Source: Halomicronema hongdechloris C2206 | Lineage (GTDB): Bacteria; Cyanobacteriota; Cyanobacteriia; Phormidesmidales; Phormidesmidaceae | DNA length: 32,000 nucleotides | Direction of reading: 5' to 3' | Assembly: GCF_002075285.3 (NCBI RefSeq) | Contig: NZ_CP021983.2 | Coordinates: 2,070,001-2,102,000 of the forward strand | Shown here: positions 6,731-31,961 of the stretch, in pieces | How positions within the stretch are numbered: position 1 is the first letter of the stretch | Layout of the letters: each line of letters begins with the position of its first letter | The notes under the pieces: generated by a model | The model's database searches: none | What the model was told of the DNA's origin: nothing | What the model saw: only the letters and a program-made list of their open reading frames with translations | Translations under genes and position numbers: made by a program

Positions 6731-6747
6731 CGCTATTTGATTTTCGG

Positions 6748-9878: not shown

Positions 9879-9887
9879 ACCAATTCT

Positions 9888-12207: not shown

Positions 12208-12239
12208 GGATCACCCAAAGTGGCCAAGAGCCCGAAGTT
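12204..12239. repeat. ISL3-type terminal inverted repeat, right copy
   Basis: TTAAGGATCACCCAAAGTGGCCAAGAGCCCGAAGTT is the inverted partner of 9842-9878. Confidence 0.65.
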
Positions 12240-12261
12240 GGCGTGAATCAGGTGCCGAAGT

Positions 12262-12549: not shown

Positions 12550-12651
12550 AGGGACTACCAGAGCAGTACAAAAGAGCGTACTGCATAAGCTTGCACACCG
12601 CTATACCTTCATGCTCCAGGGACTTGAGCTAGAGATCCCGCCCAATAGCAG

Positions 12652-13448
12652 TTGAATTTCCAAAATGAGAATTGCTGGCTATTACAGGACCCGCCTGCGG
12701 ACGGCGATCTGTGGGATGGTCCGAAAGTAGCGCAGTGGATGAGCGGCGTGTTAGGACGCCCAATCCATCCTCAGCGTGGTTGGGAATATCTCAAAAGTCT
12801 GGAGATGCGTCGCCGTCGTCCTCGTCCCGCTCACATTGACAGTGACATCGAAGTGCAAACGGCGTGGAAAAAAAACTCCCAACTCTCCTCGCCGACTTGA
12901 AGGCAACGTATCCTGAGGCGACTTTTCGAGTTTGGGCAGAAGATGAACATCGCATTGGCTTGCACCCCGTCAATCGCATGGTGTGGGTGCCCCTCGGCGA
13001 GACACCCATCGCTCCCGTGAACTTCAAATATGAGTGGCTGTGGCTCATCGGCTTTGTCGAGCCGAGCAGTGGTGAAACCTATTGGTGGATTGTGCCCCGG
13101 TTAAATTGGCCGATTCTCGAACGGGTCCTGGCGGATTTTGCCCAGGCTTTTGAGGTCAGTGCCACTAATCGCATAGTGTTGGTGCTCGACCAAGCCAGTT
13201 TCCATACGACTCATAAGTTAACAGTTCCAGACGGGATGCACTTGCTGTTTCTACCCCCGCGCTCACCTGAACTCCAACCCGCAGAACGACTCTGGCCACT
13301 CACGAACGAGGCCATTGCCAACCGCAGCTTTGAGTCTTTAGATGAGTTGGAAGCCGTCACAGCTCATCGATGCCGGGTGCTCATGAACCGTCCTGAGTTT
13401 ATGCGTGGGATAACTGGATATCACTGGTGGCTTGAGGCGGTAGCATGA
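12652..13448 (+). mobile_element. IS630-family transposase orfA/orfB (N-terminally truncated) joined by a -1 frameshift site
   Basis: orfA (12652-12900) contains '...DGPKVAQWMSGVLGR..RGWEYLKSL...RPRPAH...AWKK'. orfB (12864-13448) contains 'KLPTLLADLKATYPEATFRVWAEDEHRIGL...LVLDQASFH...FLPPRSPELQPAERLW'. Together they are collinear with single-ORF IS630 transposases. The usual N-terminal HTH region of about 100 aa is missing. Confidence 0.75.
12870..12876 (+). promoter_or_regulatory. Candidate -1 programmed frameshift heptamer A AAA AAC inside an A8 run
   Basis: In the orfA frame the codons are TGG AAA AAA AAC. A -1 slip puts the next codon at 12876 (CTC), which is exactly the orfB frame, giving AWKK(N/K)LPTLL. 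Confidence 0.45.
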
Positions 13449-13550
13449 GCGTGCTTGTTCAAACGGATTTTATATTAAGAAGCGCAGTGCCTTAGCCCGA
13501 TTTTTAGTCCATCATGGCACACCAGATGCAGCACTGTAGATAGCATGGAA

Positions 13551-14525
13551 TCAGATTAAGCCAACTCTGAATAAAGCGTTACCCAACCAGGGAAATTCTA
13601 AGAGAAGTGGCAAAAGACGACCTTTAATAGGAGCAATATCTCTAAATGATTGAAATGCCAATTCAGAGTTACACTCATTTAGGATATTGGTATTTAATGA
13701 AATGCTATCTTCAAGGTTTTTGACCTGATGCCACCATCTTGGAGGAATATAGATCACTTCCCCTGGTTCTAATACCGCTTCTATGGGTTTGGCATGGGCA
13801 TAGAGTGGAAATTGATTGAGATTAGGACTGAAAGCATTCACTTCTCCGCCGTATAGGAAATCCCCTTGATCCGGTGAGAAAAATATGATTTTTTTGCGTC
13901 CAGAAGTCAATGCAACCCATGCTGGCAAATCGTATGAATCGATGTGGAGACCAATAGATGAATCTTTAGGGCCGATATACACGGTAGAGCGCTCCAGTCG
14001 ATATTTCTTTTGCAGTTCCATTGGTAAGCGTTCGAGCCAATTGGGAAAATAAACAGGCACATCATAATCTTGACGTAGCTCAGGAAAGGAAGAGAGCCGT
14101 AATTCTTCCAAATAAAGAGAGCGTTGACGATCGTGGCTAGCTAAGTAGTCGAGATAGTCTGCCAGTTTCATGGTGATGTCTTGATTCCGGCTTCTAATTC
14201 CCTCAGAACAATCTGTGACCGTCACATTGATCGAGCCATAGGTTGACCTAAAAAAATCCAACGTCCATTTTGTTAAGGCAGGCCAGTTTTTAATAACATC
14301 TGTGAGAATAACAGGCTTGCAAACAGAGGCGTAGTCTCTAATAAATTCTTCGTAAGAAAGTTGACTGCGGCGATCGATCAAAGCAACGGCTTCCCAGGAA
14401 ACCTTAAATTGTTTCTTTTGCCATACTCGTTTGAGAAAATAAGTGGCAAGCAATACGGTAATGCCTAAGATAGGTAAAGCAAGTCCTAACCAGAAAATAT
14501 TAAAATGAGAGAGCAGTAATTGCAT
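13551..14525 (-). CDS. Membrane-anchored JmjC/cupin_8-type Fe(II)/2-oxoglutarate oxygenase (putative tailoring hydroxylase)
   Basis: N-terminal TM helix 'IFWLGLALPILGITVLLATYFL'. HxD facial-triad motif 'GLHIDSYD', 'WVALTSGRKKIIFFSP', and the distal His in 'GEVIYIPPRWWHQVKNLEDSISLNTN'. It is the last gene of the minus-strand biosynthetic operon. Confidence 0.75.
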   Translation of the reverse strand: MQLLLSHFNIFWLGLALPILGITVLLATYFLKRVWQKKQFKVSWEAVALIDRRSQLSYEEFIRDYASVCKPVILTDVIKNWPALTKWTLDFFRSTYGSINVTVTDCSEGIRSRNQDITMKLADYLDYLASHDRQRSLYLEELRLSSFPELRQDYDVPVYFPNWLERLPMELQKKYRLERSTVYIGPKDSSIGLHIDSYDLPAWVALTSGRKKIIFFSPDQGDFLYGGEVNAFSPNLNQFPLYAHAKPIEAVLEPGEVIYIPPRWWHQVKNLEDSISLNTNILNECNSELAFQSFRDIAPIKGRLLPLLLEFPWLGNALFRVGLI

Positions 14526-14615
14526 TGTTATACCAGGATTAAGTATTTCAAATTAGGAAAACTATGAGGATAAAAAGCAATGGCCAGTTAGTTGCCAACA
14601 GTTTGACTTCTATTC

Positions 14616-17622: not shown

Positions 17623-20600
17623 TTATTCATGCAGATTGAGTAGGTCTAGCTGTTGGGATATAATTTCTAGCTGTTGAGTAATTAGTTGTTCTAAGCTATG
17701 TTTTTCTAATTTGGTTTCGGTGCCAGTTTCTTGGTTATTTATTTCTTCTGAATTGATAGATTGATTGGGTTCACCCCTAGACAACGACTCTGGTGGCTCT
17801 AATTCATTAGAAACTTCAAAAGCATTACCTGTTTTGTGGCTGCTATGCTTCAAGTCTAATGGAGCGGGATTGTTCTTTGATGGTGCAGATGGCGGTGGCA
17901 AATTGTTGGTTTTAGGAGACTCAATCCAATAGCGCTGGCGTTCAAATGGATAGGTGGGCAAATGGACACGATGGCGTTGTTCGTAGGCGTAAAATCCTGA
18001 CCAGTCGATCGGTACACCAGCAAGCCAAAGATTTCCCAGGGTGTTGAGCAAGAATGCCATATCAGACTGTTGCTGATGGGGATGGCGGAGTGAAGCCAGA
18101 ACTGACGGTGAAGGGGATGAATCTGCATCAGGCTGGACGGCTAACTGACTCAATGACCCTCCCGGACCCACTTCCAAAAGGATTCGCTCCGGTTCTTGCT
18201 GCAAGATTGCCATATTCTCAGCAAACCGCACAGGCTGGCACATATGCTTTGCCCAGTAAGCGGGAGCAGTCGCCTCGTCAGGTGTAATCCAAGTCCCTGT
18301 GACATTGGATAAGTAAGGGATTTTAGGCGGCTGGAGATTAAAGGTTTTTGTCAGCTCGATTAGGGGAGTGGCGATCGGTTCTAGCATTCTGGAATGAAAG
18401 GCATGAGAGGTTTGTAACCGGCAATAGGCGAAACCCTTTTCGGTTAAATGCTGAATTAATTCATCCACAGCGTCCGTAGAACCTGAAATAACACAGAGAG
18501 AGGGAGCTTGAATTGCCGCAAGGAATAGATTTTCCTTCAACAAAGGGGCTACTTCTGCCGCTGAAAGGGGAACAGCCAGCATCGCTCCCCCTGGCAATTC
18601 CTGAATCATCTGGGCTCTTTTTGTAACCAGGGTTAGGGCATCCTCTAGAGACATGACCCCAGCCAGGCAAGCGGCAACATATTCACCGATACTATAGCCC
18701 AGCATTACCTGAGGATAAATCCCCCACGACATCCACAATTGAGCTAATGCATATTCAATGATGAAGAGAATCGGTTGAGCCAGGAAGGTTTGATTTAATG
18801 TCTGGGTGGCGGTATCCGCCTGTCCTTCAGCACGAGCTAGCAGTTTACGGAAATCGAGGCGGGAATTAGGGGAATTGCGATCGATCTCCTCTTGCATATC
18901 AGGGTTGGTTCGGTCTTTGCCAGGATACAACACGTCGCGTAAATCCAGACCTAAAAGAGGCTGAAGAAAGTTGCAACACTGATCAACCTGGTTTCGAAAC
19001 GTGGATTCGCCCTGATACAGGTGCCAAGCCATGTTGACATAGTGGGTGCCTAATCCGGGAAACAGAAACGCGACGGGACGTCCTCCCCGGGGTTGATGGT
19101 AAGTTAGGACTCGTTTGGCATCTTGAAATGCAGTAATGGCATCGTTAACATCGCGGCAGACAACGGCTCGACGATGGCTAAATGCTCGACGACCGAGTTG
19201 CAACGTATAAGCGACATCCGCCAGGTTGAGGTCAGGATTTTGTTGGAGATAATCCACGAAATTGGCAGTTGCCGTCTCTAGGGCAGTGCTTGTTTTGGCG
19301 GATATCACCAGGAGTTGCCAGGGGCGAGAGTTTCCAGAAGGCGCTTGCGGCGGCGCTTCTTCTAAAACCACATGGGCATTGGTTCCTCCAAGCCCAAAGG
19401 CGCTTACCCCTGCCCGTCTGGGGATTCCGTTGGTTTCCCAATCGGTCAGTTTGGTATTGACATAGAAAGGAGTGTTGGTAAAGTCTATTTCTGGATTAGG
19501 GTGTTCAAAGTGCAATGTGGGGGGAATCTGTTGATGCTTAAGGGCCAGTAATGTTTTAATCAAACCAGCAACACCGGCGGCTCGATCAAGGTGACTAATA
19601 TTGGTTTTTACTGAACCGATCGCACATTGTGCCTGTTTGGTAAAGCCATCCCATCTTTCCTGATTCCTTCCGGCACAAAACACATTGTCCAGTGCCCTGA
19701 TTTCAATCGGATCTCCCAAAGCGGTTCCGGTTCCGTGGGTTTCGATATACGTGATTGTTTCGGGAGCAAAGCCAGCGATCGCCTGGGCATCGGCAATCAC
19801 TTCGGCTTGGCCGGTGACGCTGGATGCAGTAAAACTCACCTTCTCAAATCCATCGTTATTAATAGCTGAGCCCTTAATCACGGCATAAATTGAGTCACCA
19901 TCTCCTAAAGCCTCTTCTAGTCTTTTAAGTACCACAACTCCCACCCCACTGCCGAACGGACAACCTTCGGCTTTGGCATCAAATGCCCGACAGTGACCAT
20001 CTGAAGAAGCCATTCCACCCTCTTGATAGAAATAACCCTGCTTTTGTGGAACGGTGATTGAGACACCTCCAGCCAACGCCAGATCGCAGTCGTAGTTCAG
20101 TAATCCCCGACAAGCTAAGTGAATGGCAACAAGTGAGGTAGAACACGCGGTACTCACATTAACACTGGGTCCCTTCAAGTTAAGCTTGTAGGAAACCCGT
20201 GTGGCTAGGAAGTCTTGGATATTGCCAATGTTAATGGATAAAGACCCTACTGTTTGGATCGAGTCAGGATTGGGAATGAGATTGTTTAAGCAATAACTAC
20301 TTGAGGCGCTTCCGGCATAAACCCCAATTAATCCTGCCTTTGAAGACTCATAGCCTGCATTCTCCAGGGCAGACCAGGCAGATTCCAAGAAAAACCGGTG
20401 CTGCGGGTCAGTGATTTTAGCTTCCCGCGGTGTAAATCCAAAGAACGAAGCATCAAACCATTCAATGTCGTCCAGCGCAAATCCCGCCTTGACATAGTTG
20501 GGGTCGTGTAACCAAGTTGGATCTACCCCTGAAGCCAGTAGCTCCTCATCGGAAAAGAATGAAATAGACTCCACGCCATTGCATAAATTTTGCCAAAACT

Positions 20601-20688
20601 GTTCAACACTCCTGGCTCCCGGAAACCGACCGGCTATGCCAATGATGGCTATGCCCTCCAAGGACGGATCGCGCTTCATCTCATCCAT
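17623..20688 (-). CDS. Type I PKS, KS-AT didomain with no carrier domain, ending in a low-complexity tail and a coiled-coil-like helix
   Basis: KS motifs 'STACSTSLVAIH', 'ETHGTGTALGDPIE' and 'KTNISHLDRAAG'. AT motifs 'GYSIGEYVAACLAG' and 'SHAFHS' (malonyl-type HAFH). The post-AT linker is 'YPFERQRYWI'. It ends in '...LEQLITQQLEIISQQLDLLNLHE'. The start overlaps the upstream stop in ATGGATGA (20681-20688). Confidence 0.9.
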   Translation of the reverse strand: MDEMKRDPSLEGIAIIGIAGRFPGARSVEQFWQNLCNGVESISFFSDEELLASGVDPTWLHDPNYVKAGFALDDIEWFDASFFGFTPREAKITDPQHRFFLESAWSALENAGYESSKAGLIGVYAGSASSSYCLNNLIPNPDSIQTVGSLSINIGNIQDFLATRVSYKLNLKGPSVNVSTACSTSLVAIHLACRGLLNYDCDLALAGGVSITVPQKQGYFYQEGGMASSDGHCRAFDAKAEGCPFGSGVGVVVLKRLEEALGDGDSIYAVIKGSAINNDGFEKVSFTASSVTGQAEVIADAQAIAGFAPETITYIETHGTGTALGDPIEIRALDNVFCAGRNQERWDGFTKQAQCAIGSVKTNISHLDRAAGVAGLIKTLLALKHQQIPPTLHFEHPNPEIDFTNTPFYVNTKLTDWETNGIPRRAGVSAFGLGGTNAHVVLEEAPPQAPSGNSRPWQLLVISAKTSTALETATANFVDYLQQNPDLNLADVAYTLQLGRRAFSHRRAVVCRDVNDAITAFQDAKRVLTYHQPRGGRPVAFLFPGLGTHYVNMAWHLYQGESTFRNQVDQCCNFLQPLLGLDLRDVLYPGKDRTNPDMQEEIDRNSPNSRLDFRKLLARAEGQADTATQTLNQTFLAQPILFIIEYALAQLWMSWGIYPQVMLGYSIGEYVAACLAGVMSLEDALTLVTKRAQMIQELPGGAMLAVPLSAAEVAPLLKENLFLAAIQAPSLCVISGSTDAVDELIQHLTEKGFAYCRLQTSHAFHSRMLEPIATPLIELTKTFNLQPPKIPYLSNVTGTWITPDEATAPAYWAKHMCQPVRFAENMAILQQEPERILLEVGPGGSLSQLAVQPDADSSPSPSVLASLRHPHQQQSDMAFLLNTLGNLWLAGVPIDWSGFYAYEQRHRVHLPTYPFERQRYWIESPKTNNLPPPSAPSKNNPAPLDLKHSSHKTGNAFEVSNELEPPESLSRGEPNQSINSEEINNQETGTETKLEKHSLEQLITQQLEIISQQLDLLNLHE

Positions 20689-23600
20689 TCGGTTTTCTCC
20701 TCTGCTTCATCCGTTGTTGATTGTTTTGGATCGCAACTTGTTTCTGCTTTGCACGATCCTGAGCATGTTGGAATACAGGTCTTTTAGCAATTTCTTGGCT
20801 CAGGTGCTCTGCCAATGCGCTAATGGTTGGATACTCAAATAAGTCAGCGATCGGAAAGTCCTGATGGAGCCGATCTCGCATTTTGCTGCGGACTTGAACG
20901 GTTAAAAGCGAGTCTCCTCCCAGGTCTAAAAAGTTATCGTAGATGCCTACGAGTTCAACACCTAGTAACTCTTGCCAGATTTCAGCCAACGTTTGTTCTA
21001 GCTCATTGCGAGGCGCAACATAAGGGTTGTTCAACTCTGGTCGTGGATGCGTTGGCTTAGATAGATTAACCTTCTCTAGAGTCTCCAGAAAGTTAGAATC
21101 TTCTCCGGCATTTTCTTGTTCAATCTGAGTTAGAAAATCGCAAGTTGATACCACAACCTGAGGAATTGTTCTTCCTAAAAGGCGATCGAATACTTCGGCC
21201 CCCTCCTGGGGTAAAATTTTCTGCTGAAGTGTTTCGGCTCGCCATGCTTGCAGGTTAAAGGGCACTGTCGTGTCTACTGCCATCCCTACCTCTTGCCAAG
21301 CATCCCAGTTAATCGAAAAGACTGAGCGATGGGAAGAAGATAAGAAGTGATGATGGGCAAAAACATCTAAGAACGCATTGGCTGCACAATAGTCTACCTG
21401 TCCAAACCCGCCTTGGATGGAGGTAAGAGAAGAACAAAGCACTAAGAAATCGAGTGGAATATCCTTGAACACAGCTTCAAGAATCCGCGTTCCTTTAACT
21501 TTAGGAGCCAGAATTCTTTCTACCTCATCAGGTGTTTTTCGTTGAATCACACCTCCACCAGGAACACCAGCCGCATGGATCACGCCATTGATCTGCCCAA
21601 ACTGAGCGCAGGACTGATCCACAACGGCTTGCATCTGTTCAAACTGAGTGACATCCGCACTAATGATTTGCACTTCAGAGCCCAGTGCTTCTAGTTCTAG
21701 TATGATTTGAATCTTGCAGCTAATCTTGTCTTGTTCGTCATGAGTGGTCAACCAGTGTTGCCACGCTTCCCGTGGAGGAAATGCCGAACGTCCAATCAGA
21801 ATCAGTTTGGCTTGAACGGTTTTTGCCAGATGTTGAGCCAGTGTTAATCCAATGCCACCCAGTCCACCCGTAATCAGATAAACTCCACCAGGTTTTAACC
21901 GTACTGTCCTTGCTGGGGGGCGATCGAATCGCACGGGTTCAAACGCTTGCACCCAGCGCTGACGCCCCCGATAGGCAATCACTAGATCGGGTGATGGCGT
22001 TGTCAATTCTGCTAGAAGTTGTTCTGCCAAGTTTTCGACTTGCCAATGTTCTGGAATAGGAAACTCAACATCAATACTGCGGCAATGAAGATTTGGATAT
22101 TCTCGGGAAATCACTCGAACAGGTCCAAGGACAGTCGCCTTTTCTGGGCAGAGCGGTTCACCCCCTGTAACCGATTGCATCTGATTTGAAATCACCGTGA
22201 TTTGAACGTCATCGGTAATCGCCTGTTTTCCTAACGCCTGAGCTAGAAAAAGCAGGCTGTAAAACCCTAAATCCTGTAGTTTGTTAACTTGTTCAAAGCC
22301 TAAATTTGGAAAATTGTGCGAGGTAACAGTCCATGAATGAATGATCTTTGTTGGAAATTGATTGTGCTTTAAAAGGGCTTTGAATAAGACATGATAGTCT
22401 TCCTGTTGTTGAGGATTGAGGCTGTATTCTTTTTCGTTCCACTGGGTAAAGTGCGACCCAATGCTTACGGTGATAATCTCGTGGTTTTGCTGTTGCAAAT
22501 TCGTTACAATCTGGGAACCTAAACCGCATTCATCCAAGAATACAAGAATACAGGATGATTGATGTAACTCATCTTGGTCCAATAAAACTGGAGGTAAAGC
22601 GGGTTTCCAGAAAGGAAGGTAAAACCAGTCTGCGATGTCCAGTTTTCTACTCTTTGATTTTTCTTTGAATGGCGCGGCAACACGCTGTGGCTGCTTTTGT
22701 AAATCAATCCAATACCGCTGGCGTTCAAAGGGATACGTAGGTAACGGGAGTCTATGGCGACGCTCATGAGCATAAAAAACAGCCCAGTCTACTTTGACGC
22801 CCATCAACCATAAACGACCGAGTGTTGTGAGCAAAACCGCAATATCTGACTTTTGCTCTTTGAGGTGACGAACCGAGGTAAGTGTCACCAATTCATCGGG
22901 TTGATGTTGCTTAGCAAAGGTACTGAGGGTGCGTCCTGGACCAACCTCTAATAATATTTGCTTGGGCTTGGTGAGAACTTCGCGAATTCCAGCACTAAAG
23001 CACACGGGTTGTCTGAGTTGCTGTGTCCAATAATGAGGATCGATCGCCTCGCTTGGTGTCATCCAAGTGCCGCTGAGATTGGATATAAACGGAATGGTAG
23101 GCGGATTCAGTTTCACGCCTTGGAGAGCTTGAGTAAAAGGTTGCAGAATCGGTTCCATCATTTCAGAGTGGAAGGCATGAGAGGTATGTAAACGGCGGCA
23201 ACTTATGTTCTGTTCTTGCAATTTTTGTTGCAACTGCTCCACAGCCTCAGTCGGACCTGAAACCACACAAGAAGATGGTGCATTACTTCCAGCTAGGGAA
23301 AGGGCTGCTCCTAACAATGGTTGTATTTGTTGCTCAGAACATTGAACAGCTAGCATCGCACCGAGGGGACACTGCTGCATCAGTCGTCCGCGTGTGGCAA
23401 CTAGCGCTAAGGCGTCTTCCAGGGAGAAAACACCAGCCAGACAAGCCGCGACATATTCGCCGATGCTGTGACCGATCATGGCGGTGGGATTCACGCCCCA
23501 AGACATCCACAATTTGGCAAAGGCATACTCAATGACAAATAAGGCAGGCTGGGCGTAGATAGTGTCGTTGAGGGAGAATTCAAAGTTCGGAGCTTGCAAC

Positions 23601-25411
23601 TCAACGTTAGATTGGTCTCCTGATTCCTGATTCCTGACTCCTGGCTCCTCATCTGGATAGAGAACTTGTCGTAGATCTAAACCGAGATGAGGTTTAAGCA
23701 ATTCGCAACAGCGATCGACTTGCTCAGTAAATGCCAGCTCGGTATGGTAGAGTTCCCGCGCCATATTGACATACTGGGTTCCCTGTCCCGGAAACATGAA
23801 CACAAGGGAACGATGACCGAGTTCTTGATAATGAGACAAAACTTGTTGAGAATCAGGCGAGCTTAGGGCTTGTGTGGCGTCATTTGAGTTTTGACAAATT
23901 ACCATGCGGCGATGCTCAAATCCTCGGCGCCCCACTTGCAGGGTATAGGCTACATCGGCAAGGTTACAATCAGGATGGTGCTGAAGGTAATTTACTAAGT
24001 TAACTGTAGCAGTGTCTAAAGCGGTACTGGTTTTGGCAGAGAGGAATAATAACTGCCAGGGACGAGAAGAGTCAGAAACTTCGATGGGAGGCGCTTCTTC
24101 CAGAATTACATGGGCATTAGTGCCACCAATTCCAAACGAACTAACACCAGCGCGACGAGGGGTACCGTTTGTTTTCCATTCAGCAAGTTGGGTATTGACG
24201 TAGAAAGGACTGGTGGCGAAATCAATTTTAGGATTGGGTTTCTCAAAGTGTAGGCTAGGCGGAATTTGCTTGTGTTCAAGGGCAAGAACGGTTTTGATCA
24301 GACCCGCCACTCCTGCTGCTGCATCCAAATGTCCAATATTGGTTTTAACAGAACCGATCGCACAGAATTGCTTCTGTTGCGTTTTTACCCGAAAGGCTTG
24401 GGTCAGAGCAGCGATTTCAATTGGATCGCCAAGAGAGGTTCCCGTCCCGTGAGCTTCGACATAGGTGATGGTATCCGGCTCAACTTCTGCGATCGCTTGA
24501 GCTTTCCGAATAACCTTTGCCTGACTATCGATACGAGGGGCTGTATAGCTGACCTTGAAAGAACCGTCGTTGTTGGTGGCTGAGCCTTTGATTACAGCGT
24601 GGATTGTGTCTCCATCAGCAAGGGCGTTTTTTAGTCGCTTCAACACGACAATTCCTACACCACTGCCTCTTACCGTTCCTTGGGCTTTGGCATCAAAGGC
24701 ACGACAATGACCATCTGGAGAATTAATGCTACCTTCTTGATACAAGTAACCAGAGGATTCTGAAATGGAAACGCCTCCTGCCAATGCCAGATGGCATTCA
24801 CCACCAAGCAAGCTACGACAAGCCATATGAACGGCAACTAGTGAGGTGGAGCAGGCGGTTTGAATATCGACACTTGTGCCCTCCAGGTTCAGCTTATAGG
24901 ACACACGGGTCGTGAGAAAATCTTTGTCGTTGGAGATCACCAGTTGATAGGGATCGACAGAGGCTGCAAAGCTGCCTGCTGCATAACGCTTGAGCATGTA
25001 GCCGTTCAATCCTGTACCTGCATAAACTCCGATCGCTCCTCGATAGGTTTCAGCGTCATAGCCAGCCTGTTCAAGGGCTTCCCAGGCACACTCTAGAAAC
25101 AGTCGATGTTGTGGGTCTGTAATTTCTGCTTCTTTAGCACTGAAGCCGAAAAACGAGGCATCAAATAATTCGATGTTCTCTAAAACGCCTGCTGCTCTGA
25201 CATATTGAGGATGATCTAGCAACGCTGATTCAACTCCCAGAGCAATTAGTTCTTTATCATTAAAGAACGAAATTGATTCCACTCCATTTTTTTGGTTTTC
25301 CCAAAATTTTTCAATGGTATTTGCCTTGGGAAAGCGCCCACTCATGCCAATAATGGCTATTTCTAAGCCATTTGTCTGATTTTTCGTCACTAATGGGTTG
25401 ATTCTACTCAT
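20681..25411 (-). CDS. Type I PKS module KS-AT-KR-ACP
   Basis: KS motifs 'QTACSTSLVAVH', 'EAHGTGTSLGDPIE' and 'KTNIGHLDAAAG'. AT motifs 'GHSIGEYVAACLAG' and 'SHAFHS' (malonyl-type). KR motifs 'YLITGGLGGIGL' and '...VDYCAANAFLD', with no LDD motif seen. ACP motif 'LDLGGDSLLTVQV'. Confidence 0.9.
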   Translation of the reverse strand: MSRINPLVTKNQTNGLEIAIIGMSGRFPKANTIEKFWENQKNGVESISFFNDKELIALGVESALLDHPQYVRAAGVLENIELFDASFFGFSAKEAEITDPQHRLFLECAWEALEQAGYDAETYRGAIGVYAGTGLNGYMLKRYAAGSFAASVDPYQLVISNDKDFLTTRVSYKLNLEGTSVDIQTACSTSLVAVHMACRSLLGGECHLALAGGVSISESSGYLYQEGSINSPDGHCRAFDAKAQGTVRGSGVGIVVLKRLKNALADGDTIHAVIKGSATNNDGSFKVSYTAPRIDSQAKVIRKAQAIAEVEPDTITYVEAHGTGTSLGDPIEIAALTQAFRVKTQQKQFCAIGSVKTNIGHLDAAAGVAGLIKTVLALEHKQIPPSLHFEKPNPKIDFATSPFYVNTQLAEWKTNGTPRRAGVSSFGIGGTNAHVILEEAPPIEVSDSSRPWQLLFLSAKTSTALDTATVNLVNYLQHHPDCNLADVAYTLQVGRRGFEHRRMVICQNSNDATQALSSPDSQQVLSHYQELGHRSLVFMFPGQGTQYVNMARELYHTELAFTEQVDRCCELLKPHLGLDLRQVLYPDEEPGVRNQESGDQSNVELQAPNFEFSLNDTIYAQPALFVIEYAFAKLWMSWGVNPTAMIGHSIGEYVAACLAGVFSLEDALALVATRGRLMQQCPLGAMLAVQCSEQQIQPLLGAALSLAGSNAPSSCVVSGPTEAVEQLQQKLQEQNISCRRLHTSHAFHSEMMEPILQPFTQALQGVKLNPPTIPFISNLSGTWMTPSEAIDPHYWTQQLRQPVCFSAGIREVLTKPKQILLEVGPGRTLSTFAKQHQPDELVTLTSVRHLKEQKSDIAVLLTTLGRLWLMGVKVDWAVFYAHERRHRLPLPTYPFERQRYWIDLQKQPQRVAAPFKEKSKSRKLDIADWFYLPFWKPALPPVLLDQDELHQSSCILVFLDECGLGSQIVTNLQQQNHEIITVSIGSHFTQWNEKEYSLNPQQQEDYHVLFKALLKHNQFPTKIIHSWTVTSHNFPNLGFEQVNKLQDLGFYSLLFLAQALGKQAITDDVQITVISNQMQSVTGGEPLCPEKATVLGPVRVISREYPNLHCRSIDVEFPIPEHWQVENLAEQLLAELTTPSPDLVIAYRGRQRWVQAFEPVRFDRPPARTVRLKPGGVYLITGGLGGIGLTLAQHLAKTVQAKLILIGRSAFPPREAWQHWLTTHDEQDKISCKIQIILELEALGSEVQIISADVTQFEQMQAVVDQSCAQFGQINGVIHAAGVPGGGVIQRKTPDEVERILAPKVKGTRILEAVFKDIPLDFLVLCSSLTSIQGGFGQVDYCAANAFLDVFAHHHFLSSSHRSVFSINWDAWQEVGMAVDTTVPFNLQAWRAETLQQKILPQEGAEVFDRLLGRTIPQVVVSTCDFLTQIEQENAGEDSNFLETLEKVNLSKPTHPRPELNNPYVAPRNELEQTLAEIWQELLGVELVGIYDNFLDLGGDSLLTVQVRSKMRDRLHQDFPIADLFEYPTISALAEHLSQEIAKRPVFQHAQDRAKQKQVAIQNNQQRMKQRRKPNG

Positions 25412-25434: not shown

Positions 25435-28400
25435 TTATTCTTCTCTTTTTAATAGTTGATTAAGCAAATCTTTTTCCATGTTTATCTCCTTATCAATTTC
25501 TTTCATGGATTCGGAAGATGTCTCATCTTTTGTCTTGCTAAAATAATCTGCCAAGGAACTGATGGTTGGTAGCTTAAACATTTCTATTAACGAAATCTCC
25601 GATGAGAATAATTCACTAAGCTGACTATGGACCTGAACCATTAGTAAGGAATGACCACCAAGATCAAAGAAGTTATCGTGAATACCGATTTTTTCGACAT
25701 TAAGAACCTTTCGCCAAATCGCAGCTATAGCCTGTTCAGTCTCGGTTCTTGGTATGACATAGGCAACTTTTAATTCTGGTCTGCCAGTCTCTGGCATAGG
25801 CAGGGATCGCCGATCGACCTTGCCATTAGGGGTCAATGGCAGCGCTTCGAGTTCCATAATGGTTGCAGGCACCATGTACTCGGGCAGCTTGCCTCGCAGG
25901 AAGCGACGCAACTCTGTGGTTGACAGCGCCGCTTCTGGACGGGGTACCGCATAGCCCACCAGCTGCTGGTCTCCGTGGTCACTGGTGCGAGCAATGATTA
26001 CCGTTTGTGATACGGTCGGGTGCTGGGAGAGCACACTCTCAATCTCACCGATTTCAATGCGGAAGCCGCGTATCTTCACTTGGTGGTCGATTCGCCCCAG
26101 ATACTCGAGAATGCCATCTGCTCGATATCTGACCAGGTCCCCGGTCTTGTATAGCCTTGTCCCGGGCTCCACACTGAAGGGATTGGGGATAAAGCACTCG
26201 GCTGTCAACTCCGGCCGCTGGTAATAGCCTCGGGCTAGCTGAACACCACCAATGTGCAATTCACCTGGCACCCCAATGGGAGTGGGTTGTCCGGCTTTGT
26301 CCAATACATACACCTGAGTGTTGGCAATGGGACGGCCAATCGGGACACTATTTTCAACCTGATGAGGATCACAGGCCCAAGCCGTCACATCAATTGCAGC
26401 CTCAGTAGGACCATACAGGTTGTGCAAATTAGCCTCAAGACGTTTAAAGTAGTGCTGATGAAGCTTCAGTGGAAGCGCTTCGCCACTACAAATGACATGC
26501 CTCAGGCTTTTACAGTATGACTCTAGCTGCAGCTCTTCTAGAAAGACTTGCAGCATAGATGGCACAAAGTGCAGGACACTTACCTGTTCTTGAGCAATGA
26601 ACTTAGCCAAGTAATGACTATCTTGATGCCCACCGGGTTGAGCAACCGCTAAGGATGCCCCTGTCATCAGAGGCCAGAAAAACTCCCATACTGAGACATC
26701 AAAACTAAAGGGGGTCTTTTGTAGGACTCGGTCAGCTTGCGTCAGCTGATAGGTCTCTTGCATCCACTGCAAACGATTGCACACCCCTTGGTGAGTATTC
26801 ATCGCTCCTTTTGGCTGTCCCGTCGAGCCAGAGGTGTAGATAACGTAACTGAGATGAGAGCTTGCAGTAGGTCTCGAGGGATTGGTGGCATCTGATGTCG
26901 CTATTGCTGCCCAGTTAGCCTCCAAGCATAAGCATAGGGTGTGAGTCCCATTAGGCAAGACATCTACGAGAGCCATGTGGGTAAGCACAAGGGGTACTTG
27001 AGCATCCTGCACCATGAAGGCTAGACGCTCATGGGGATAGGTTGGATCCAGAGGCACATAAGCGCCCCCCGCTTTCAGCACCCCTAACAGCGCAATCACC
27101 ATCGCTACTGAGCGTTCGAGACAGACCCCCACCAAGGTTTCAGGTCCCACCCCCTGGCCCTGCAGGTAATGGGCCAGTTGATTGGCGCGACGATTCAACT
27201 CGTCATAGGTCAGGTGCTGCTGCTCAAACACCAGCGCCACTGCCTCCGGGGTACGCTCCACTTGCGCTTCAAATAACTCATGGAGACAAGCCTCTGGATA
27301 CTCAGCCTCCGTCTGATTCCACTCCACCAGAAGACGCTGCCGCTCAGCAGAGGTCAACAGGGGTAGGTCACTAACCCGCTGCTCCGGCTGCCTCACCACC
27401 GCCGTTAACACCTGCTGCAGATGCGTGATGAGACGTGCCATGGTCGCCGCGGCAAATAAGTCGGTGTTGTACTCTAGCTGCCCTTGCAACCCCGCCTCAC
27501 CCTCTTGCAGCGATAGAGTCAGGTCAAATTTGGCGCTTTCTGGAGCACTCTCGAGTACCTCCACCGCTACCCCTGGCAAGGCCAACGATTCCTGGGGCGC
27601 ATTCTGCAGGATAAACATCACCTGAAACAGGGGGGAATGACTCAATGCCCGCTCCGGCTGCAGCAGTTCCACCACCTGCTCAAAGGGCATATCCTGATGG
27701 GCATAGGCCCCTAAGGTCACCTCCCGTACCCGCTGCAATACCTCCACAAAGGAGGGCTGCCCCGCCAAGGATGTGCGCAACACTAAGGTATTGACGAAAA
27801 AGCCAATCAACCCTTCCACTTCCCTACGGGTGCGGTTGGCAATGGGAGAGCCCACCACGATGTCCGCTTGGCCGCTGTAGCGACTCAACACCACTTGAAA
27901 GGCAGCCAGCAGTGTCATAAACAGGGTGCAGTTCTGCTGCCGACTCAACTGCTTCAATCCCTGGGTTAACTCTGGGGTAATTCCAAAGGCTTGAGTCGCT
28001 CCCCGGAAGGTCTGCACCGCCGGACGAGGATGGTCCGTGGGTAACTCAAGCACTTCCGGGGCACCTGCTAACTGCTGCTGCCAGTACTGCCGCTGTTGCT
28101 CTAGCACCTCACCGTGGAGCCACTGCCGCTGCCAAGCCGCATAGTCTAGATACTGAACCGGTAGGGGGGATAAGGAAGGGGCATGACCTGTGACAATAGC
28201 CCCATAGAGCTGAGCCACTTCTCTGACTAAAATGCCCATTGACCAGCCATCGGAGACGATGTGGTGCATGGCAAACACCAGCACCTGCTCCTGCTGGGAA
28301 CATTGCAGCAGGACGACGCGAAGCAAGGGGGGCTGGTCGAGGGAAAAAGGCTGATGGGTGATGCTCCCAGTCAGCTGTTGGACCCCTTGCTCCTGCCCTT

Positions 28401-29376
28401 GGGCTGTTAGGTCTTGCAGGTCGATGACCGCCAGGGGCACCTCTACAGTGGGATGGAGATCTACGGCAGGATGGCCCTCTTGGCTGACAAACCCGAGGCG
28501 CAGGGCCTCATGACGCTGCAGGAGAATCTGGAGACTGGCCTGGAGGGCGTCAATGTCAAGGGAACCGTGTAGTCGCAGGGCACTCGACAGGTGATAGAAG
28601 GGACTTTCTGGTTCGAGTTGGGCCAAAAACCACAGCCGTTGTTGGGCAAAGGAGAGGGGTAAGGGGCCGCTGCGCTCGATAGTGGTTATGGGAGGACTGG
28701 TGAGGCCCTGTTCCTCATGGAGGGCAGCTTCAATGACAGGCGCTAACTCAGCAATGGTGGGATGCTCAAAGAGGCGACGCAGGGGCACCTCTACGGCAAA
28801 GGCGTGACGCACGTGCGACATCACCCGGGTTGCCAGCAGGGAATGGCCGCCTAACTCAAAGAAGTTGCTCTGGATGCTGACGGTCTCTAGCTTCAGCACG
28901 TCTGCCCAAATGCTCACGAGCATCGCTTCGATGGGGGTGCGAGCTGCAACCGTTGCTGAAGTGTCTAGGTGCTGATACTCGGGGGCTGGTAGGGCTTTGC
29001 GGTCGACTTTGCCATTGGGGGTGAGGGGCAATTCCTTCAGCAGAACCATGGCTGCAGGCACCATGTAGTCGGGAAGCTGCTCTTGCAGGTAACGCCGTAA
29101 CGCTGAGGGGGAGAGACTGGCAGTGGCAGGGACGACATAGCCCACTAACTGTGGCTCGCCTGAGGCATTCTGGTGAGCGACCACCACGGCTTGTGAGACA
29201 GATGAATGGCGCAGCAGCACCGTTTCAATTTCACCTAGTTCAATGCGGAAGCCCCGCAGCTTCACTTGATGGTCGAGGCGACCCAGGTATTCCAGGCTGC
29301 CATCGCGGCAATACTTGACTAAGTCCCCAGTCTTGTACAGACGGGCCCCAGGTGTGGGGCTAAAGGGATTGGGCAC
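25435..29376 (-). CDS. NRPS, distal part of a frameshift-split gene: (A7-A10 of module 1)-T-C-A(Ser-like)-T
   Basis: It begins mid-A-domain: 'PNPFSPTPGARLYKTGDLV' (A7), 'GRLDHQVKLRGFRIELGEIE' (A8) and 'NGKVDR' (A10). Next come T 'FFELGGHSLL' and LCL-type C ('LSFAQQRLWFL', 'MHHIVSDGWS'). A full A domain follows (A3 'YVIYTSGSTGQPKG', 'FDVSVWEFF', 'NLYGPTEAAIDVT'), then T 'FFDLGGHSLL'. The track's start codon is a GTG artefact. Confidence 0.9.
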   Translation of the reverse strand: MPNPFSPTPGARLYKTGDLVKYCRDGSLEYLGRLDHQVKLRGFRIELGEIETVLLRHSSVSQAVVVAHQNASGEPQLVGYVVPATASLSPSALRRYLQEQLPDYMVPAAMVLLKELPLTPNGKVDRKALPAPEYQHLDTSATVAARTPIEAMLVSIWADVLKLETVSIQSNFFELGGHSLLATRVMSHVRHAFAVEVPLRRLFEHPTIAELAPVIEAALHEEQGLTSPPITTIERSGPLPLSFAQQRLWFLAQLEPESPFYHLSSALRLHGSLDIDALQASLQILLQRHEALRLGFVSQEGHPAVDLHPTVEVPLAVIDLQDLTAQGQEQGVQQLTGSITHQPFSLDQPPLLRVVLLQCSQQEQVLVFAMHHIVSDGWSMGILVREVAQLYGAIVTGHAPSLSPLPVQYLDYAAWQRQWLHGEVLEQQRQYWQQQLAGAPEVLELPTDHPRPAVQTFRGATQAFGITPELTQGLKQLSRQQNCTLFMTLLAAFQVVLSRYSGQADIVVGSPIANRTRREVEGLIGFFVNTLVLRTSLAGQPSFVEVLQRVREVTLGAYAHQDMPFEQVVELLQPERALSHSPLFQVMFILQNAPQESLALPGVAVEVLESAPESAKFDLTLSLQEGEAGLQGQLEYNTDLFAAATMARLITHLQQVLTAVVRQPEQRVSDLPLLTSAERQRLLVEWNQTEAEYPEACLHELFEAQVERTPEAVALVFEQQHLTYDELNRRANQLAHYLQGQGVGPETLVGVCLERSVAMVIALLGVLKAGGAYVPLDPTYPHERLAFMVQDAQVPLVLTHMALVDVLPNGTHTLCLCLEANWAAIATSDATNPSRPTASSHLSYVIYTSGSTGQPKGAMNTHQGVCNRLQWMQETYQLTQADRVLQKTPFSFDVSVWEFFWPLMTGASLAVAQPGGHQDSHYLAKFIAQEQVSVLHFVPSMLQVFLEELQLESYCKSLRHVICSGEALPLKLHQHYFKRLEANLHNLYGPTEAAIDVTAWACDPHQVENSVPIGRPIANTQVYVLDKAGQPTPIGVPGELHIGGVQLARGYYQRPELTAECFIPNPFSVEPGTRLYKTGDLVRYRADGILEYLGRIDHQVKIRGFRIEIGEIESVLSQHPTVSQTVIIARTSDHGDQQLVGYAVPRPEAALSTTELRRFLRGKLPEYMVPATIMELEALPLTPNGKVDRRSLPMPETGRPELKVAYVIPRTETEQAIAAIWRKVLNVEKIGIHDNFFDLGGHSLLMVQVHSQLSELFSSEISLIEMFKLPTISSLADYFSKTKDETSSESMKEIDKEINMEKDLLNQLLKREE
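26218..26337. repeat. ~120-nt direct repeat, copy 1 (A5/A6 region of the module-2 A domain)
   Basis: Hand alignment with 29403-29522 shows about 13 mismatches in 120 nt. Both copies encode 'PIANTQ.YVLDKAGQPTPIGVPGELHIGG..LARGYYQRPELTAE'. Confidence 0.8.
27044..27320. repeat. 277-nt direct repeat, copy 1 (C-A linker to A2 motif of the module-2 A domain)
   Basis: Hand alignment with 30205-30481 has no gaps and about 20 mismatches (roughly 93% identity). Both copies encode 'WNQTEAEY..ACLHELFEAQVER.PEAVALVFEQQHLTYDELNRRANQLAHYLQGQGVGPETLVGVCLERSVAMVIALLGVLKAGGAYVPLDP'. Confidence 0.85.
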
Positions 29377-31961
29377 AAGCGTTCTGCTGTTAACTCGGGG
29401 CGCTGGTAATAGCCTCGGGCTAGCCCCATGCCACCAATGTGCAGTTCACCTGGCACCCCAATGGGAGTGGGTTGTCCGGCTTTATCCAGCACATATAGCT
29501 GAGTGTTGGCAATGGGCTGGCCTAAGGGCACTGTCTCACACTCAGCCCTCAGTTCACTCACCGCAGACCAAATCGTCGTCTCGGTCGGTCCATACAGGTT
29601 CCAGACCCCTGCACTGCGAGCGTACAACTGATGGGCTAACTCCAATGGCAAGGCGTCCCCGCCACAGAACACTAGCAATGCAGATGACCCGGACCACTCC
29701 GTTGACATCAGCATCTGCCAGGTGGCTGGAGTCGCTTGCAGCACTGTCGCGTCAAATTGCTCTAGTCGCCGAGCCAAATGATGAGCATCACAGGCGACCT
29801 CTCGACTCACCACCTCCAATCGAGCTCCTTGAAGGAGTGGCAGGTATAACTCCAAGGCTGCAATGTCAAAAGCGACGGTTGTGACTGAGACCAGTCGGTC
29901 CTCAGCCCTGAGCCCTGGATACTCAGCCATGCTATATAGGAAGTTGCTCAACGCCTGATGGGGAATCTGGACGCCTTTGGGGGCTCCGGTGGACCCTGAG
30001 GTGTAGATCACATAGCTGAGCTGCTCGAGTGCGGTAACTGGAGCAGGAGGATAGCTGGGGCTCTCAGCAATGCAGTCCCAATCGGTGTCTAGGCACAGAG
30101 GGGAAACTGAGGTGGGTAGCACGCCAACGTGAGCTGCTTGCGTTAGCAAACAACGGGCCTGTGCGTCTTCTAGGATATAGGCCAGTCGCTCTTGAGGGTG
30201 GCTCGGATCCAGAGGCACATACGCACCCCCCGCTTTCAGCACCCCTAGCAGTGCAATCACCATCGCCACCGAGCGCTCTAGACATACCCCTACTAAGGTT
30301 TCAGGTCCCACGCCTTGGCCCTGCAGGTAATGGGCCAATTGATTGGCCCGACGATTCAACTCGTCATAGGTCAGGTGCTGCTGCTCAAACACTAGCGCCA
30401 CTGCCTCCGGGCTGCGCTCCACTTGCGCTTCAAATAACTCATGGAGGCAAGCCTCTGAATACTCAGCCTCCGTCTGATTCCAGTCAACTAAAATATGCCG
30501 TTGTTCTTGTTCGCTAAAGAGGGAAAGCTCTGATATAGGTAATTTATAGTCAGTAACAACAGACGCTAATAAATTTTGGAAATGTGAAGTTAGGTCAGCA
30601 ATAGTAATTTCATTAAATAAATCTAGACTGTACTCTACTTGTCCTCGAATTGCTTGATCGACTTCAGACAAATTAAAACGTAATTCAAATTTTGTTGTTT
30701 CGCTTTCTATTGGAAAAGTCTCTAAGTTCAAGCCAGACAGCCTTAGTTCATCTACAGAAGCAAGCTGAAAATCAAACTTGACTTGAAATAGTGGATTGAC
30801 TCGACTGAGATCTCGTTCGGGCTTTAAATACTCAACTAATCTTTCAAAAGGCAGATCTTGATGAGCATAAGCTTCTAGTGTTACTTCACGAACTTTTTGT
30901 ACTACCTCTTGAAAGGTAAAACTGCTGTTCAGCTTTGTTCGTAGCACTAATGTATTTACTAAGAGGCCAATTAATCCCTCAGTTTCGATCTGGTTTCGAT
31001 TAGCAATATCAGTGCCTATAACAATGTCTTCTTGATTGGAATATTTATAAAGTAAGATCTTAAATGTTGTCAATAGTAAGACAAACAAGCTTATCCCTTC
31101 TTGGGCACTCAGTTGCTTCAACGCTGCAGTAAGCGGTCTTGACAATGTAATAGGATATCGACCTCCACGAAATGTTGGTGTAGTTGGTCGAGACTTATCC
31201 GTCGGAAGTTCTAGCATCGACATATCAGCAAGCTGCTGGTGCCAATAGCTCAGCTGTTTTTCTAATCTCTCTCTCTGTAGCCATTGCCGTTGCCAGAGTG
31301 CCCAATCCGCATATTGAATTGGCAAATCAAGCAGGGGAGACGGTTCACCTTTTGAAAACGCTTCATAGAGGGCCTTAAATTCTCGTGTTAGGATGCCCAA
31401 AGACCAGCGATCAGCAATAATATGATGAAGTGTTAGTAGCAACACATGATCTGTCTCACCTAGACGCAGAAGAGCAAGCCTCGAGGATGATTGAGAAAGA
31501 TCAAAAGGCAGCTGTGAAATTTGTCTAACTAAATCTTGAGATTCTGAAGTTAGCTGAGGTACTTGAGTCAGATCAAAAACAGGCAATCTCACAGAAGTTG
31601 ACTCAATAACCTGCATGGGGTTTCCTTCATCGTCGCTTATAAAGCGAGTTCGCAAGGTTTCATGGCGCCTGAATAGCTCATGAAAAACTCGATACAGTAT
31701 TGCTATTTTAAGCTCACCCCGAAGACGTAGTGCTAAAGGAATATTGTAGGCTGTGTTCGATGGATCGAGTTGCTGAATGAACCATAATCTTTGTTGAGCA
31801 AAGGATAAAGGTGGATTATCTGAGCCTTCTCGCTTAGGAATTATCTGAGACTCGGAATACTGCAATTGCTTTTGCTTTAGCCGAAGCTCAAGCAACTTCC
31901 TTTGCTTGGGTGATAGGGTGGCAATTTGTTGAGAAAGATCTTCTGACATGACTAGATCCAA
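29319..31961 (-). CDS. NRPS, proximal part of a frameshift-split gene: N-terminal docking region - C - A(Gly-like, A1-A6 only)
   Basis: LCL-type C ('LSFAQQRLWFIQQL', 'LHHIIADRWS'). A-domain motifs 'LTYDELNRRANQLA', 'LKAGGAYVPLDP', 'YVIYTSGSTGAPKG', 'FDIAALELY', 'NLYGPTETTIW' and 'GELHIGGMGLARGYY'. The reading then runs out of frame ('ERLCPIPLAPHLGPVCTRLGT*'). The start is TTG 31961 or, more plausibly, ATG 31949 ('MSEDLSQQ'). Confidence 0.9.
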   Translation of the reverse strand: MDLVMSEDLSQQIATLSPKQRKLLELRLKQKQLQYSESQIIPKREGSDNPPLSFAQQRLWFIQQLDPSNTAYNIPLALRLRGELKIAILYRVFHELFRRHETLRTRFISDDEGNPMQVIESTSVRLPVFDLTQVPQLTSESQDLVRQISQLPFDLSQSSSRLALLRLGETDHVLLLTLHHIIADRWSLGILTREFKALYEAFSKGEPSPLLDLPIQYADWALWQRQWLQRERLEKQLSYWHQQLADMSMLELPTDKSRPTTPTFRGGRYPITLSRPLTAALKQLSAQEGISLFVLLLTTFKILLYKYSNQEDIVIGTDIANRNQIETEGLIGLLVNTLVLRTKLNSSFTFQEVVQKVREVTLEAYAHQDLPFERLVEYLKPERDLSRVNPLFQVKFDFQLASVDELRLSGLNLETFPIESETTKFELRFNLSEVDQAIRGQVEYSLDLFNEITIADLTSHFQNLLASVVTDYKLPISELSLFSEQEQRHILVDWNQTEAEYSEACLHELFEAQVERSPEAVALVFEQQHLTYDELNRRANQLAHYLQGQGVGPETLVGVCLERSVAMVIALLGVLKAGGAYVPLDPSHPQERLAYILEDAQARCLLTQAAHVGVLPTSVSPLCLDTDWDCIAESPSYPPAPVTALEQLSYVIYTSGSTGAPKGVQIPHQALSNFLYSMAEYPGLRAEDRLVSVTTVAFDIAALELYLPLLQGARLEVVSREVACDAHHLARRLEQFDATVLQATPATWQMLMSTEWSGSSALLVFCGGDALPLELAHQLYARSAGVWNLYGPTETTIWSAVSELRAECETVPLGQPIANTQLYVLDKAGQPTPIGVPGELHIGGMGLARGYYQRPELTAERLCPIPLAPHLGPVCTRLGT
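29403..29522. repeat. ~120-nt direct repeat, copy 2 (A5/A6 region of the module-1 A domain)
   Basis: See 26218-26337. Confidence 0.8.
30205..30481. repeat. 277-nt direct repeat, copy 2 (C-A linker to A2 motif of the module-1 A domain)
   Basis: See 27044-27320. Confidence 0.85.

Follow-up and report, generated by a model that had tools for sequence, protein, structure and literature searches.

Near the right edge of a 32-kb stretch of the Halomicronema hongdechloris C2206 genome (the window, 32,000 nucleotides in all) lies a minus-strand gene for a non-ribosomal peptide synthetase (NRPS), at positions 25435-31961. Pfam matches on its two open reading frames (ORFs), all far above the curated cut-offs, give the domain order C-A-T-C-A-T (condensation, adenylation and carrier domains), and the NRPS core motifs WNxTE, VPLDP, YKTGDL, NGKVDR and GGHSL are present in the translation. 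The central domains, A1-T1-C2-A2, are separated from C1 and T2 by sharp steps in base composition, and most of their sequence is identical, as protein, to a paralog encoded in the same cluster. We consider it probable, although with real room for doubt, that A1-T1-C2-A2 is a recombinant block that was built in several steps by homologous recombination, the latest of which would have taken place within the cluster.

Compositional and similarity junctions within the gene

With a confidence that we hold jointly with this history, the gene is probably a two-module NRPS, C1-A1(Gly-like)-T1-C2-A2(Ser-like)-T2, which would hand over to the polyketide synthase (PKS) PKS1 in a large siderophore-type NRPS/PKS cluster. 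Its parts are listed below from the 5′ end, in window coordinates. Two relatives recur in the list. One is the best match to the block, a C-A-T-C-A-T protein of 2,177 amino acids (aa) from the same organism (P0121; ASC71036/XM38_019850; hereafter the paralog, its domains marked with a prime); comparisons with it are at the protein level and use the window protein after repair of a frameshift. The other, P0133, is a metagenomic NRPS on the JGI contigs L078 (metagenome 3300023283) and L079.

30483-31961 (-): condensation domain C1 with an N-terminal docking-like helix, low-GC scaffold; Pfam Condensation, 5e-107; GC 0.402, GC at third codon positions (GC3) 0.31
30480-30485 (-): upper breakpoint in the C-A linker, GAC (D493) / TGG (W494); from DNA alignment and GC change-point
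27043-30443 (-): protein tract identical to the paralog, extending over the greater part of A1, through T1 and C2 in full and into A2 for 93 aa; from alignment
30204-30482 (-): N-terminal segment of A1 (WNQTEAEY...VPLDP, motifs A1-A2), copy 1 of an internal direct repeat (family D1)
29514-30203 (-): A1 core, motifs A3-A6; 100% identical to A1′ of the paralog, ~41% to A1 of P0133 and ~50% in nucleotides to the gene's own A2 core
29224-29513 (-): A7-A8 segment of A1 (IANTQ...GEIE), copy 1 of a second internal direct repeat (family D2)
28669-29223 (-): A1 sub-domain (A9-A10) and carrier T1; Pfam AMP-binding_C and PP-binding; 100% to the paralog, 59-64% to P0133
27322-28668 (-): condensation domain C2; Pfam Condensation, 7e-123; 100% to the paralog, 76% to P0133, only 47% to C1-type domains
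27043-27321 (-): N-terminal segment of A2, copy 2 of the N-terminal repeat (D1) and, by alignment, the last piece of the paralog-identical tract
26329-27042 (-): A2 core, of a different lineage; 40% to the paralog, 72% to A2 of P0133; GC ~0.495
26038-26328 (-): A7-A8 segment of A2, copy 2 of the second repeat (D2); 86% in aa to A2′ of the paralog, 80% to P0133
25810-26037 (-): A2 sub-domain A9-A10, ending in NGKVDR (25827-25810), without a close relative; GC 0.55-0.61
25775-25809 (-): lower breakpoint zone in the A-T linker (RSLPMPETGRPE...); GC change-point at 25775; in the paralog, too, the A1′/A2′ similarity stops just past NGKVDRK
25435-25774 (-): carrier T2 and a C-terminal docking-like tail, low-GC scaffold, handing over to PKS1 (20681-25411); Pfam PP-binding; GC 0.36

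Sliding GC stays at ~0.57 across ~25800-30450 and lies at 0.34-0.39 in the flanks. The block as a whole (25791-30482, ~4.7 kb) has a GC of 0.565-0.572 and a GC3 of 0.61 (952/1558), compared with a GC3 of 0.31 (154/493) in C1 and of 0.35 (42/121; GC 0.362) in T2 plus tail (25435-25790), and the GC3 differences are significant on both sides (Fisher tests, 3e-31 for C1 and 2e-8 for T2). Measured between adjacent 300-nucleotide intervals, the two junctions are the largest GC steps in the window (0.24 and 0.233), and both exceed all 200 block shuffles (shuffle maximum 0.20). The support interval (2-lnL) of the upper maximum-likelihood change-point is 30415-30491; the lower change-point is at 25775, with support 25694-25792.

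These results bear out most of what the original prediction, made from the sequence alone, had said of composition. Its four hand counts of GC in 60-nucleotide samples were exact on recounting (19, 33, 37 and 24 of 60). It had placed the upper switch at ~30485-30495 in the C-A linker, in agreement with the change-point and with an alignment break at 30482/30483, and the lower switch soon after NGKVDR, past which GC does drop, ~20-50 nucleotides on. Its scheme of C1(low)-[A1-T1-C2-A2](high)-T2(low) holds for domain order and GC classes but overlooks two features: the reading frame is broken in A1, and the block is heterogeneous, since GC dips to 0.495 over the A2 core (~26295-27063) versus 0.587 in its neighbors (likelihood ratio 14). 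The lower outer boundary is placed by composition only. Comparison with L078 was tried as a means of assigning the A2 sub-domain to the block or to T2, and was uninformative (58% versus 59%).

The upper junction is a break in similarity as well as in composition. When the C1-A1 junction is aligned as DNA with the gene's own C2-A2 junction, identity jumps from ~45% to ~97% at the TGG of WNQTEAEY (30482/30483); 5′ of GAC/TGG the two junctions are unrelated, AT-rich at C1-A1 and GC-rich at C2-A2. The upper GC step thus coincides to the base with the similarity breakpoint at the W codon (30482). Downstream of it, nucleotide identity between A1 and A2 is 83-97% per 60-nucleotide interval over 30482-30182 (91% over the first 100 codons), ~50% at 30180-29520 and again ~90% at 29520-29380, so that the two A domains have common N-terminal sequence (to motif A2) and C-terminal sequence (from ~A7) around unrelated cores. 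The N-terminal copies, of ~280 nucleotides (30482-30204 in A1 and 27321-27043 in A2), differ at 21 of 93 codons, 19 of them synonymously and 2 non-synonymously, which argues that they are old paralogous copies under purifying selection, neither a fresh duplication nor a collapsed assembly repeat. For the A7-A8 copies (29513-29224 in A1 and 26328-26038 in A2), 45 codons were compared; nucleotide identity there is 87%, and 10 of these codons differ synonymously and 4 non-synonymously.

Breakpoints are found, then, at 30482/30483 (alignment), 27043 (where the paralog-identical tract ends) and ~26328 (where similarity resumes). The original prediction of a recombinant block ending at the C-A and A-T linkers survives; its single cassette does not, as these segments make the block, as we read them, a nested mosaic with an A2 core of other origin.

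Stachelhaus positions were read by hand, at residues that we take to correspond to GrsA-PheA numbering, and give the specificity codes DILQFGLIWK for A1 and DVWHISLIDK for A2, which suggest a Gly-like and a Ser-like substrate, respectively. LgrA is overall the best solved-structure match for both domains. The structures of EntF and FscH score higher with A2 than with A1 (412 versus 292 bits for EntF and 472 versus 331 bits for FscH); since the A domains of both presumably activate Ser, these scores lend slight weight to a Ser assignment for A2.

As assembled, the gene lacks an intact reading frame for a single NRPS polypeptide. At 29377-29378 (-), between motifs A6 and A7 of A1, it has TT where the paralog protein needs TTT (GAA CGC TT- GTG CCC; ...ELTAER-F-VPNPF...), and the one-base frameshift leaves overlapping ORFs of 880 aa (29319-31961) and 1313 aa (25435-29376) that are annotated as two genes, XM38_019810 (5′ half) and XM38_019800 (3′ half). 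The paralog is intact at this site, where it reads RPELTAERFVPNPFSP (context ...ELTAERFVPNPF...). Either the frameshift is real and inactivates the gene, or it is a homopolymer error introduced by the 454/PacBio hybrid assembly.

The in-cluster paralog and relatives in other genomes

The protein search with the block returned, in addition to the paralog, ASC71031 (P0151) from H. hongdechloris C2206, which is 100% identical to the 1313-aa ORF. Between the paralog and the window protein, 1133 of 1134 residues are the same over aa 507-1640, and all 1123 over aa 518-1640 (30410-27043); the identical tract stops at VPLDP (motif A2; 27043). Over the whole block the paralog is 87% identical, and the identities of the remaining segments (C1 45%, A2 core 40%, A2 A7-A8 segment 86%, A2 sub-domain 55% and T2 41%) are strongly incongruent with one another. 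The tract is therefore far closer to the paralog than its flanks are. From the accession series (ASC71029/30/31...36) and the published locus-tag table, the gene order runs PKS2 (019780), PKS1 (019790), the 3′ half (019800) and 5′ half (019810) of the NRPS gene, a luxA-like monooxygenase (019820), a type I PKS (019830), a DABA decarboxylase (019840) and the paralog (019850), beyond which are sulfotransferase, PKS and NRPS genes. The paralog thus sits four genes upstream, in the same cluster, past the right edge of the window. As this nearest relative is 100% identical over 1,123 aa, the latest event would be an intra-cluster conversion or unequal crossover.

The outer junction appears to have a different age. 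The first 13 residues of the window A1 (WNQTEAEYSEACL) resemble the C2-A2 junction and not the C1′-A1′ junction of the paralog (WNHTEVTYPQQQCI), which sets the outer junction apart from the identical tract and implies that it is the older of the two. The A1 N terminus carries two private substitutions, S502 and S517, that are found in no other copy. The paralog has a comparable internal history: its own A1′ and A2′, both putatively Gly-like, are identical at 467 of 482 residues, which suggests an intragenic A-domain duplication or conversion there too, and their similarity ends right after NGKVDRK. A proxy for GC at codon positions 1 and 2, calculated from amino acids, runs 0.485, 0.549 and 0.444 along the paralog and 0.451, 0.536 and 0.394 along the window gene, so that by this proxy the paralog appears to have the same low-high-low composition.

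Outside the genome, window positions 29535-26039 align with 12361-15858 of L078 at 73% nucleotide identity (3.5 kb). Within the P0133 gene, L078 positions 12359-15839 have a GC of 0.574 versus 0.449 for the rest (likelihood ratio 127), and this high-GC island is exactly one module long, bounded at both ends by A7-A8 direct repeats. C2 and the A2 core are 76% and 72% identical to L078, and KS-AT and the T2 scaffold 60-65%. The window T2 is collinear with the A sub-domain and T domain of L078 gene 3 (59-60% in aa), which precedes the L078 PKS, and that PKS matches PKS1 at 62%. The occurrence of a GC-rich, T-C-centered block with other ends in two AT-richer clusters would argue for repeated insertion over a single inherited mosaic.

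More distant searches gave little. The genome-contig scan with the repaired full-length NRPS yielded no un-recombined orthologous cluster (best 49-55%), and neither that scan nor the search of the protein collection found another Halomicronema genome or a close scaffold relative; across the collections searched, no orthologous cluster exceeds ~60% identity. For C1, the best relatives in a collection of 5.8 billion proteins, all of them cyanobacterial, are 53-56% identical, none of them close. A 225-aa query across the C1-A1 junction matched at best at 56% over its full length, and no independent fragment spanning the junction was found; synteny across 77 loci recovered only generic T-to-KS-AT-KR-ACP junctions (53-62%).

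Host composition and the history of the block

The H. hongdechloris C2206 genome has 5,577,845 bp and a GC content of 54.6% (PMC6416890). As the host has this composition, it is the block, at 57%, that is host-like and the low-GC scaffold that is the outlier, and the polarity proposed originally, with the block as the compositional outsider, has to be reversed. The scaffold genes have a GC of 0.36-0.49 and a GC3 of 0.31-0.46, off the published genome GC of 0.546:

C1: GC 0.40
T2: GC 0.36
PKS1 / PKS2: GC 0.47 / 0.49
ACP-aminotransferase-thioesterase gene: GC 0.44
JmjC gene: GC 0.41
TonB receptor, binding protein and major facilitator superfamily (MFS) genes: GC 0.46-0.48

As the original prediction had stated, the neighboring PKS genes are thus of lower GC than the block, and an accessory operon (0.62) and a nest of insertion sequence (IS) remnants (0.52-0.61) are high, which for both means a host-like composition. 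The AT-richer rest of the cluster is most likely its more recently acquired, unameliorated part.

How might the block have been assembled? The repeated A-domain segments, whose protein sequence is highly conserved among cyanobacterial NRPSs, are substrates for homologous recombination, and even distant C1 relatives carry WN.TE..Y...CIHELFEAQVE. Recombination in this gene would have occurred at the conserved ends of A domains, namely the C-A linker with motifs A1-A2 (WNxTE...HELFEAQVE...VPLDP), the A7-A8 hinge, and A10 with the A-T linker. In older events, an A domain or block of host composition may have come to lie between C1 and T2, both AT-rich, by way of junctions in the C-A and A-T linkers, and the A2 core may have been swapped for that of another lineage. 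The latest event, which would be very recent, is a 3.4-kb tract that was presumably homogenized between this gene and XM38_019850 by gene conversion or unequal crossover. Insertion in one step of an A-T-C module from the paralog into a single-module gene was also considered; it fits the A2-type first 13 residues of A1 and the ends of the tract, but we do not favor it as a full account, since the collinearity of T1-C2-A2(core) with L078 suggests ancestral linkage.

A bolder version of this history is that one [A-T-C-A] unit of host composition, running from the C-A linker to the A-T linker, was pasted into both bimodular genes of an imported AT-rich assembly line, that a related unit entered another cyanobacterial cluster independently, and that the foreign line was in this way "domesticated" by resident parts. 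We offer this tentatively and think it rather doubtful. If it were true, the domesticating unit, which sits beside a set of MbtH, type II thioesterase and phosphopantetheinyl transferase genes of host composition, would be a multi-domain unit of natural and repeated exchange, and one that cuts through C-A and A-sub/T interfaces supposed to be protected.

Several observations weigh against the stepwise history that we prefer. The paralog was compared as protein only. The protein search with the block identified no resident donor outside this cluster among H. hongdechloris proteins. The homologous block of L078 is also GC-rich in a low-GC cluster, and the mosaic could predate its arrival in this genome. 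The lower junction is defined by its composition, and the A2 sub-domain is 58-59% identical to scaffold-type (L078 gene 3 A-sub) and block-type (P0133 A1-sub) relatives alike. An exact repeat of 3.4 kb and a homopolymer frameshift are features that hybrid assemblies of this type get wrong. Finally, of the biosynthetic proteins of the cluster, 0 were detected in the published proteome, and the function of the recombinant gene is a predicted one.

Some of these points serve other explanations. If a native low-GC scaffold had taken the A-T-C-A block from some foreign, GC-richer genome, one would expect the sharp GC and GC3 steps at both ends; the missing resident donor outside the cluster and the placement of the closest relative outside the genome (P0133/L078) in another organism would also fit. 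However, the donor of different composition that the original prediction envisaged gives way to a best match that is 100% identical as protein and lies four genes away, whereas the best match outside the genome reaches 73% in nucleotides, and at a host GC of 54.6% it is the scaffold (36-49%) and not the block (57%) that stands out. We regard a foreign donor as very improbable. A different possibility is that the cluster reached Halomicronema already mosaic, such that only the intra-cluster homogenization was local and the match to host GC is coincidental. L078 lends this idea some substance, as it holds a homologous high-GC block in a low-GC cluster, is homologous in scaffold from T to PKS (60-62%) and has the same accessory types (class-III aminotransferase and sulfotransferase), and the best matches of the block include no other H. 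hongdechloris NRPS. Yet the boundaries differ (the C-A and A-T linkers in the window, the A7-A8 hinge at both ends in L078), which argues for independent insertions; the GC of the block fits both the host and the nearby MbtH/thioesterase/phosphopantetheinyl transferase operon (0.62); and shared ancestry does not readily explain how a 20-point GC contrast would have persisted in two hosts while the nucleotide sequences diverged by 27%. An already mosaic arrival is, in our view, unlikely, although it deserves to be kept in mind.

It is also conceivable that the assembly is at fault, with the 3.4-kb repeat mis-threaded or consensus-polished, in which case the identity, the frameshift and possibly the bimodular architecture would be unreal. 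The genome was assembled as a hybrid of 454, 36-bp Solexa and 14x early PacBio-RS reads, with manual joins and reported chimeric reads (PMC6416890); the frameshift is a T3-to-T2 homopolymer change, and the 225-aa query search turned up no independent contig spanning the junction. Against such an artifact, both composition junctions sit in unique sequence outside the identical tract and would survive mis-threading, and the A1 N terminus is privately substituted (S502 and S517), so that the junctions should be robust. The N-terminal repeat copies, which differ at 21/93 codons, are also uncollapsed, and the paralog shows the same low-high-low pattern by the amino-acid proxy. We judge an artifact improbable on balance. 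The steps might, lastly, reflect no transfer at all, being due instead to domain-specific selection on amino acids or codons or to GC-biased gene conversion. The block does recombine with the paralog, and the block and its flanks differ in GC at the first and second codon positions as well. However, synonymous third positions show the largest contrast (0.31 versus 0.61), domains of the same type differ according to location (C1 versus C2, T1 versus T2), the step occurs within a few bases, at the similarity breakpoint, and the diverged L078 homolog is equally GC-rich. As a sole cause we reject selection or biased conversion, given the third-position contrast and the coincident similarity breakpoint; the chance that no transfer occurred seems close to negligible.

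The surrounding locus and comparison with known systems

An operon at 502-2552 (-), with a GC of ~0.62 and so of block-like composition class, encodes an MbtH-like protein (2325-2552), a type II thioesterase (1545-2303) and a phosphopantetheinyl transferase (502-1521). The MbtH-like protein may partner the A domains of the block: A2 scores fairly well against the A domains of EntF and FscH, which we take to be MbtH-dependent. Between the genes for the MbtH-like protein and the TonB receptor, a 117-aa ORF (2589-2942, -) has an unexpected match to Pfam CBF_beta, the eukaryotic core-binding factor beta (31 bits, cut-off 25, E = 2e-7). Encoded at 4094-9300 (+) is a siderophore-type uptake and export set: a TonB-dependent receptor, which has an AMIN domain at its N terminus, a periplasmic binding protein and also an MFS transporter. 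For the TonB receptor the published proteome gives 12 spectral counts, and for all of the NRPS/PKS proteins zero.

A nest of IS remnants at 9490-13448 (GC 0.52-0.61) divides the transport from the biosynthetic genes and contains the four IS-type transposase genes or fragments of the locus:

9490-9861 (-): IS110-family fragment
10549-11256: DDE_Tnp_1 gene
11299-12207: ISL3 gene
12652-13448: HTH_33 plus DDE_3

The window contains no tRNA or integrase, and tRNA and Rfam scans for island landmarks were empty. In the tri-domain protein encoded at 14616-17540 (-), ACP-aminotransferase(class III)-thioesterase, GC is ~0.50 at 15800-16800 (aminotransferase) versus 0.39-0.43 in the ACP and thioesterase parts, with steps at ~15806 and ~15405; this may be another recombination patch. 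In the PKS1/PKS2 region (17623-25411, -), both KS-AT match the same L078 PKS (62-65%), and PKS1 has AT-rich patches at 22000-22600 and 25000-25411, in linker and docking regions.

Recombination is thought to be the main route by which NRPSs diversify, and natural cut and join sites guide peptide engineering. The original prediction had proposed that the block represents this kind of module or A-domain exchange, and the mosaic segment identities and the A-core swap pattern agree with it. Here, the GC contrast pinpoints old junctions to within a few bases, and the identical 3.4-kb tract marks a very recent event. The outer junctions, one where the C-A linker starts and one inside the A-T linker, are unlike the dominant published sub-domain boundaries and would be useful in choosing fusion sites if the enzyme is active. 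The locus also carries a caution, in that the direction of an exchange, "high-GC insert" or "low-GC scaffold," can be read only with the composition of the host genome in hand.

In a survey of natural NRPS recombination, exchanges were mostly A-core sub-domain swaps that tend to leave the C-A linker and A-sub/T interface in their native form, and an A-T-C-A multidomain exchange in iturinic lipopeptide synthetase was rare, with only one other such exception (Baunach et al., 2021; PMC8097286). Like the units in that study, for which donors in the same cluster are possible, the window gene has a mosaic segment whose similarity to another module exceeds that of its flanks; as in an A-core swap, the N termini of A1 and A2 are conserved to motif A2, the cores diverge and similarity is back before A8; and, as in the exception, the unit is of A-T-C-A size, here with nested sub-domain swaps. 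It differs in its outer ends, one where the C-A linker motif begins and the other within the A-T linker; the sub-domain of A2 would thus have traveled with the block. In addition, a 20-point GC step marks the ends ("GC content" is absent from the text of that paper), and the exchange is read from sequence.

Closer in setting is the intragenomic replacement of A domains between mcyB1 and mcyC of microcystin synthetase (Fewer et al., 2007; PMC2174460), in which, as proposed here, two NRPS genes of one cyanobacterial cluster recombine and A-domain sequence is copied between modules. Unlike that single A domain, the tract described here spans A-T-C and the start of the next A domain, 3.4 kb, within a compositionally chimeric gene. 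Engineered XUT fusions are likewise multi-domain swaps at linker or T sites, with a "fusion site I" in the A-T linker, where the lower boundary in the window is also found, and they are reported to tolerate GC differences of roughly 50-65% (bioRxiv 10.1101/2022.12.02.518901). However, those are laboratory T-C-A units joined in the T domain or the A-T linker, whereas the predicted natural block runs from A to A and begins at the C-A linker. Long, near-identical stretches among paralogous modules have also been described for the PKSs of Streptomyces avermitilis, where concerted evolution was attributed to gene conversion (PMC1592344); unlike those PKS modules, the tract in this NRPS ends sharply at A-domain motifs, and the GC contrast exposes older events. 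The locus is thus a clean natural example that combines known patterns, namely a block of A-T-C-A size, a nested A-core swap and an intra-cluster donor, and involves no new mechanism; what it adds is a compositional marker and outer junctions that fall at linkers.

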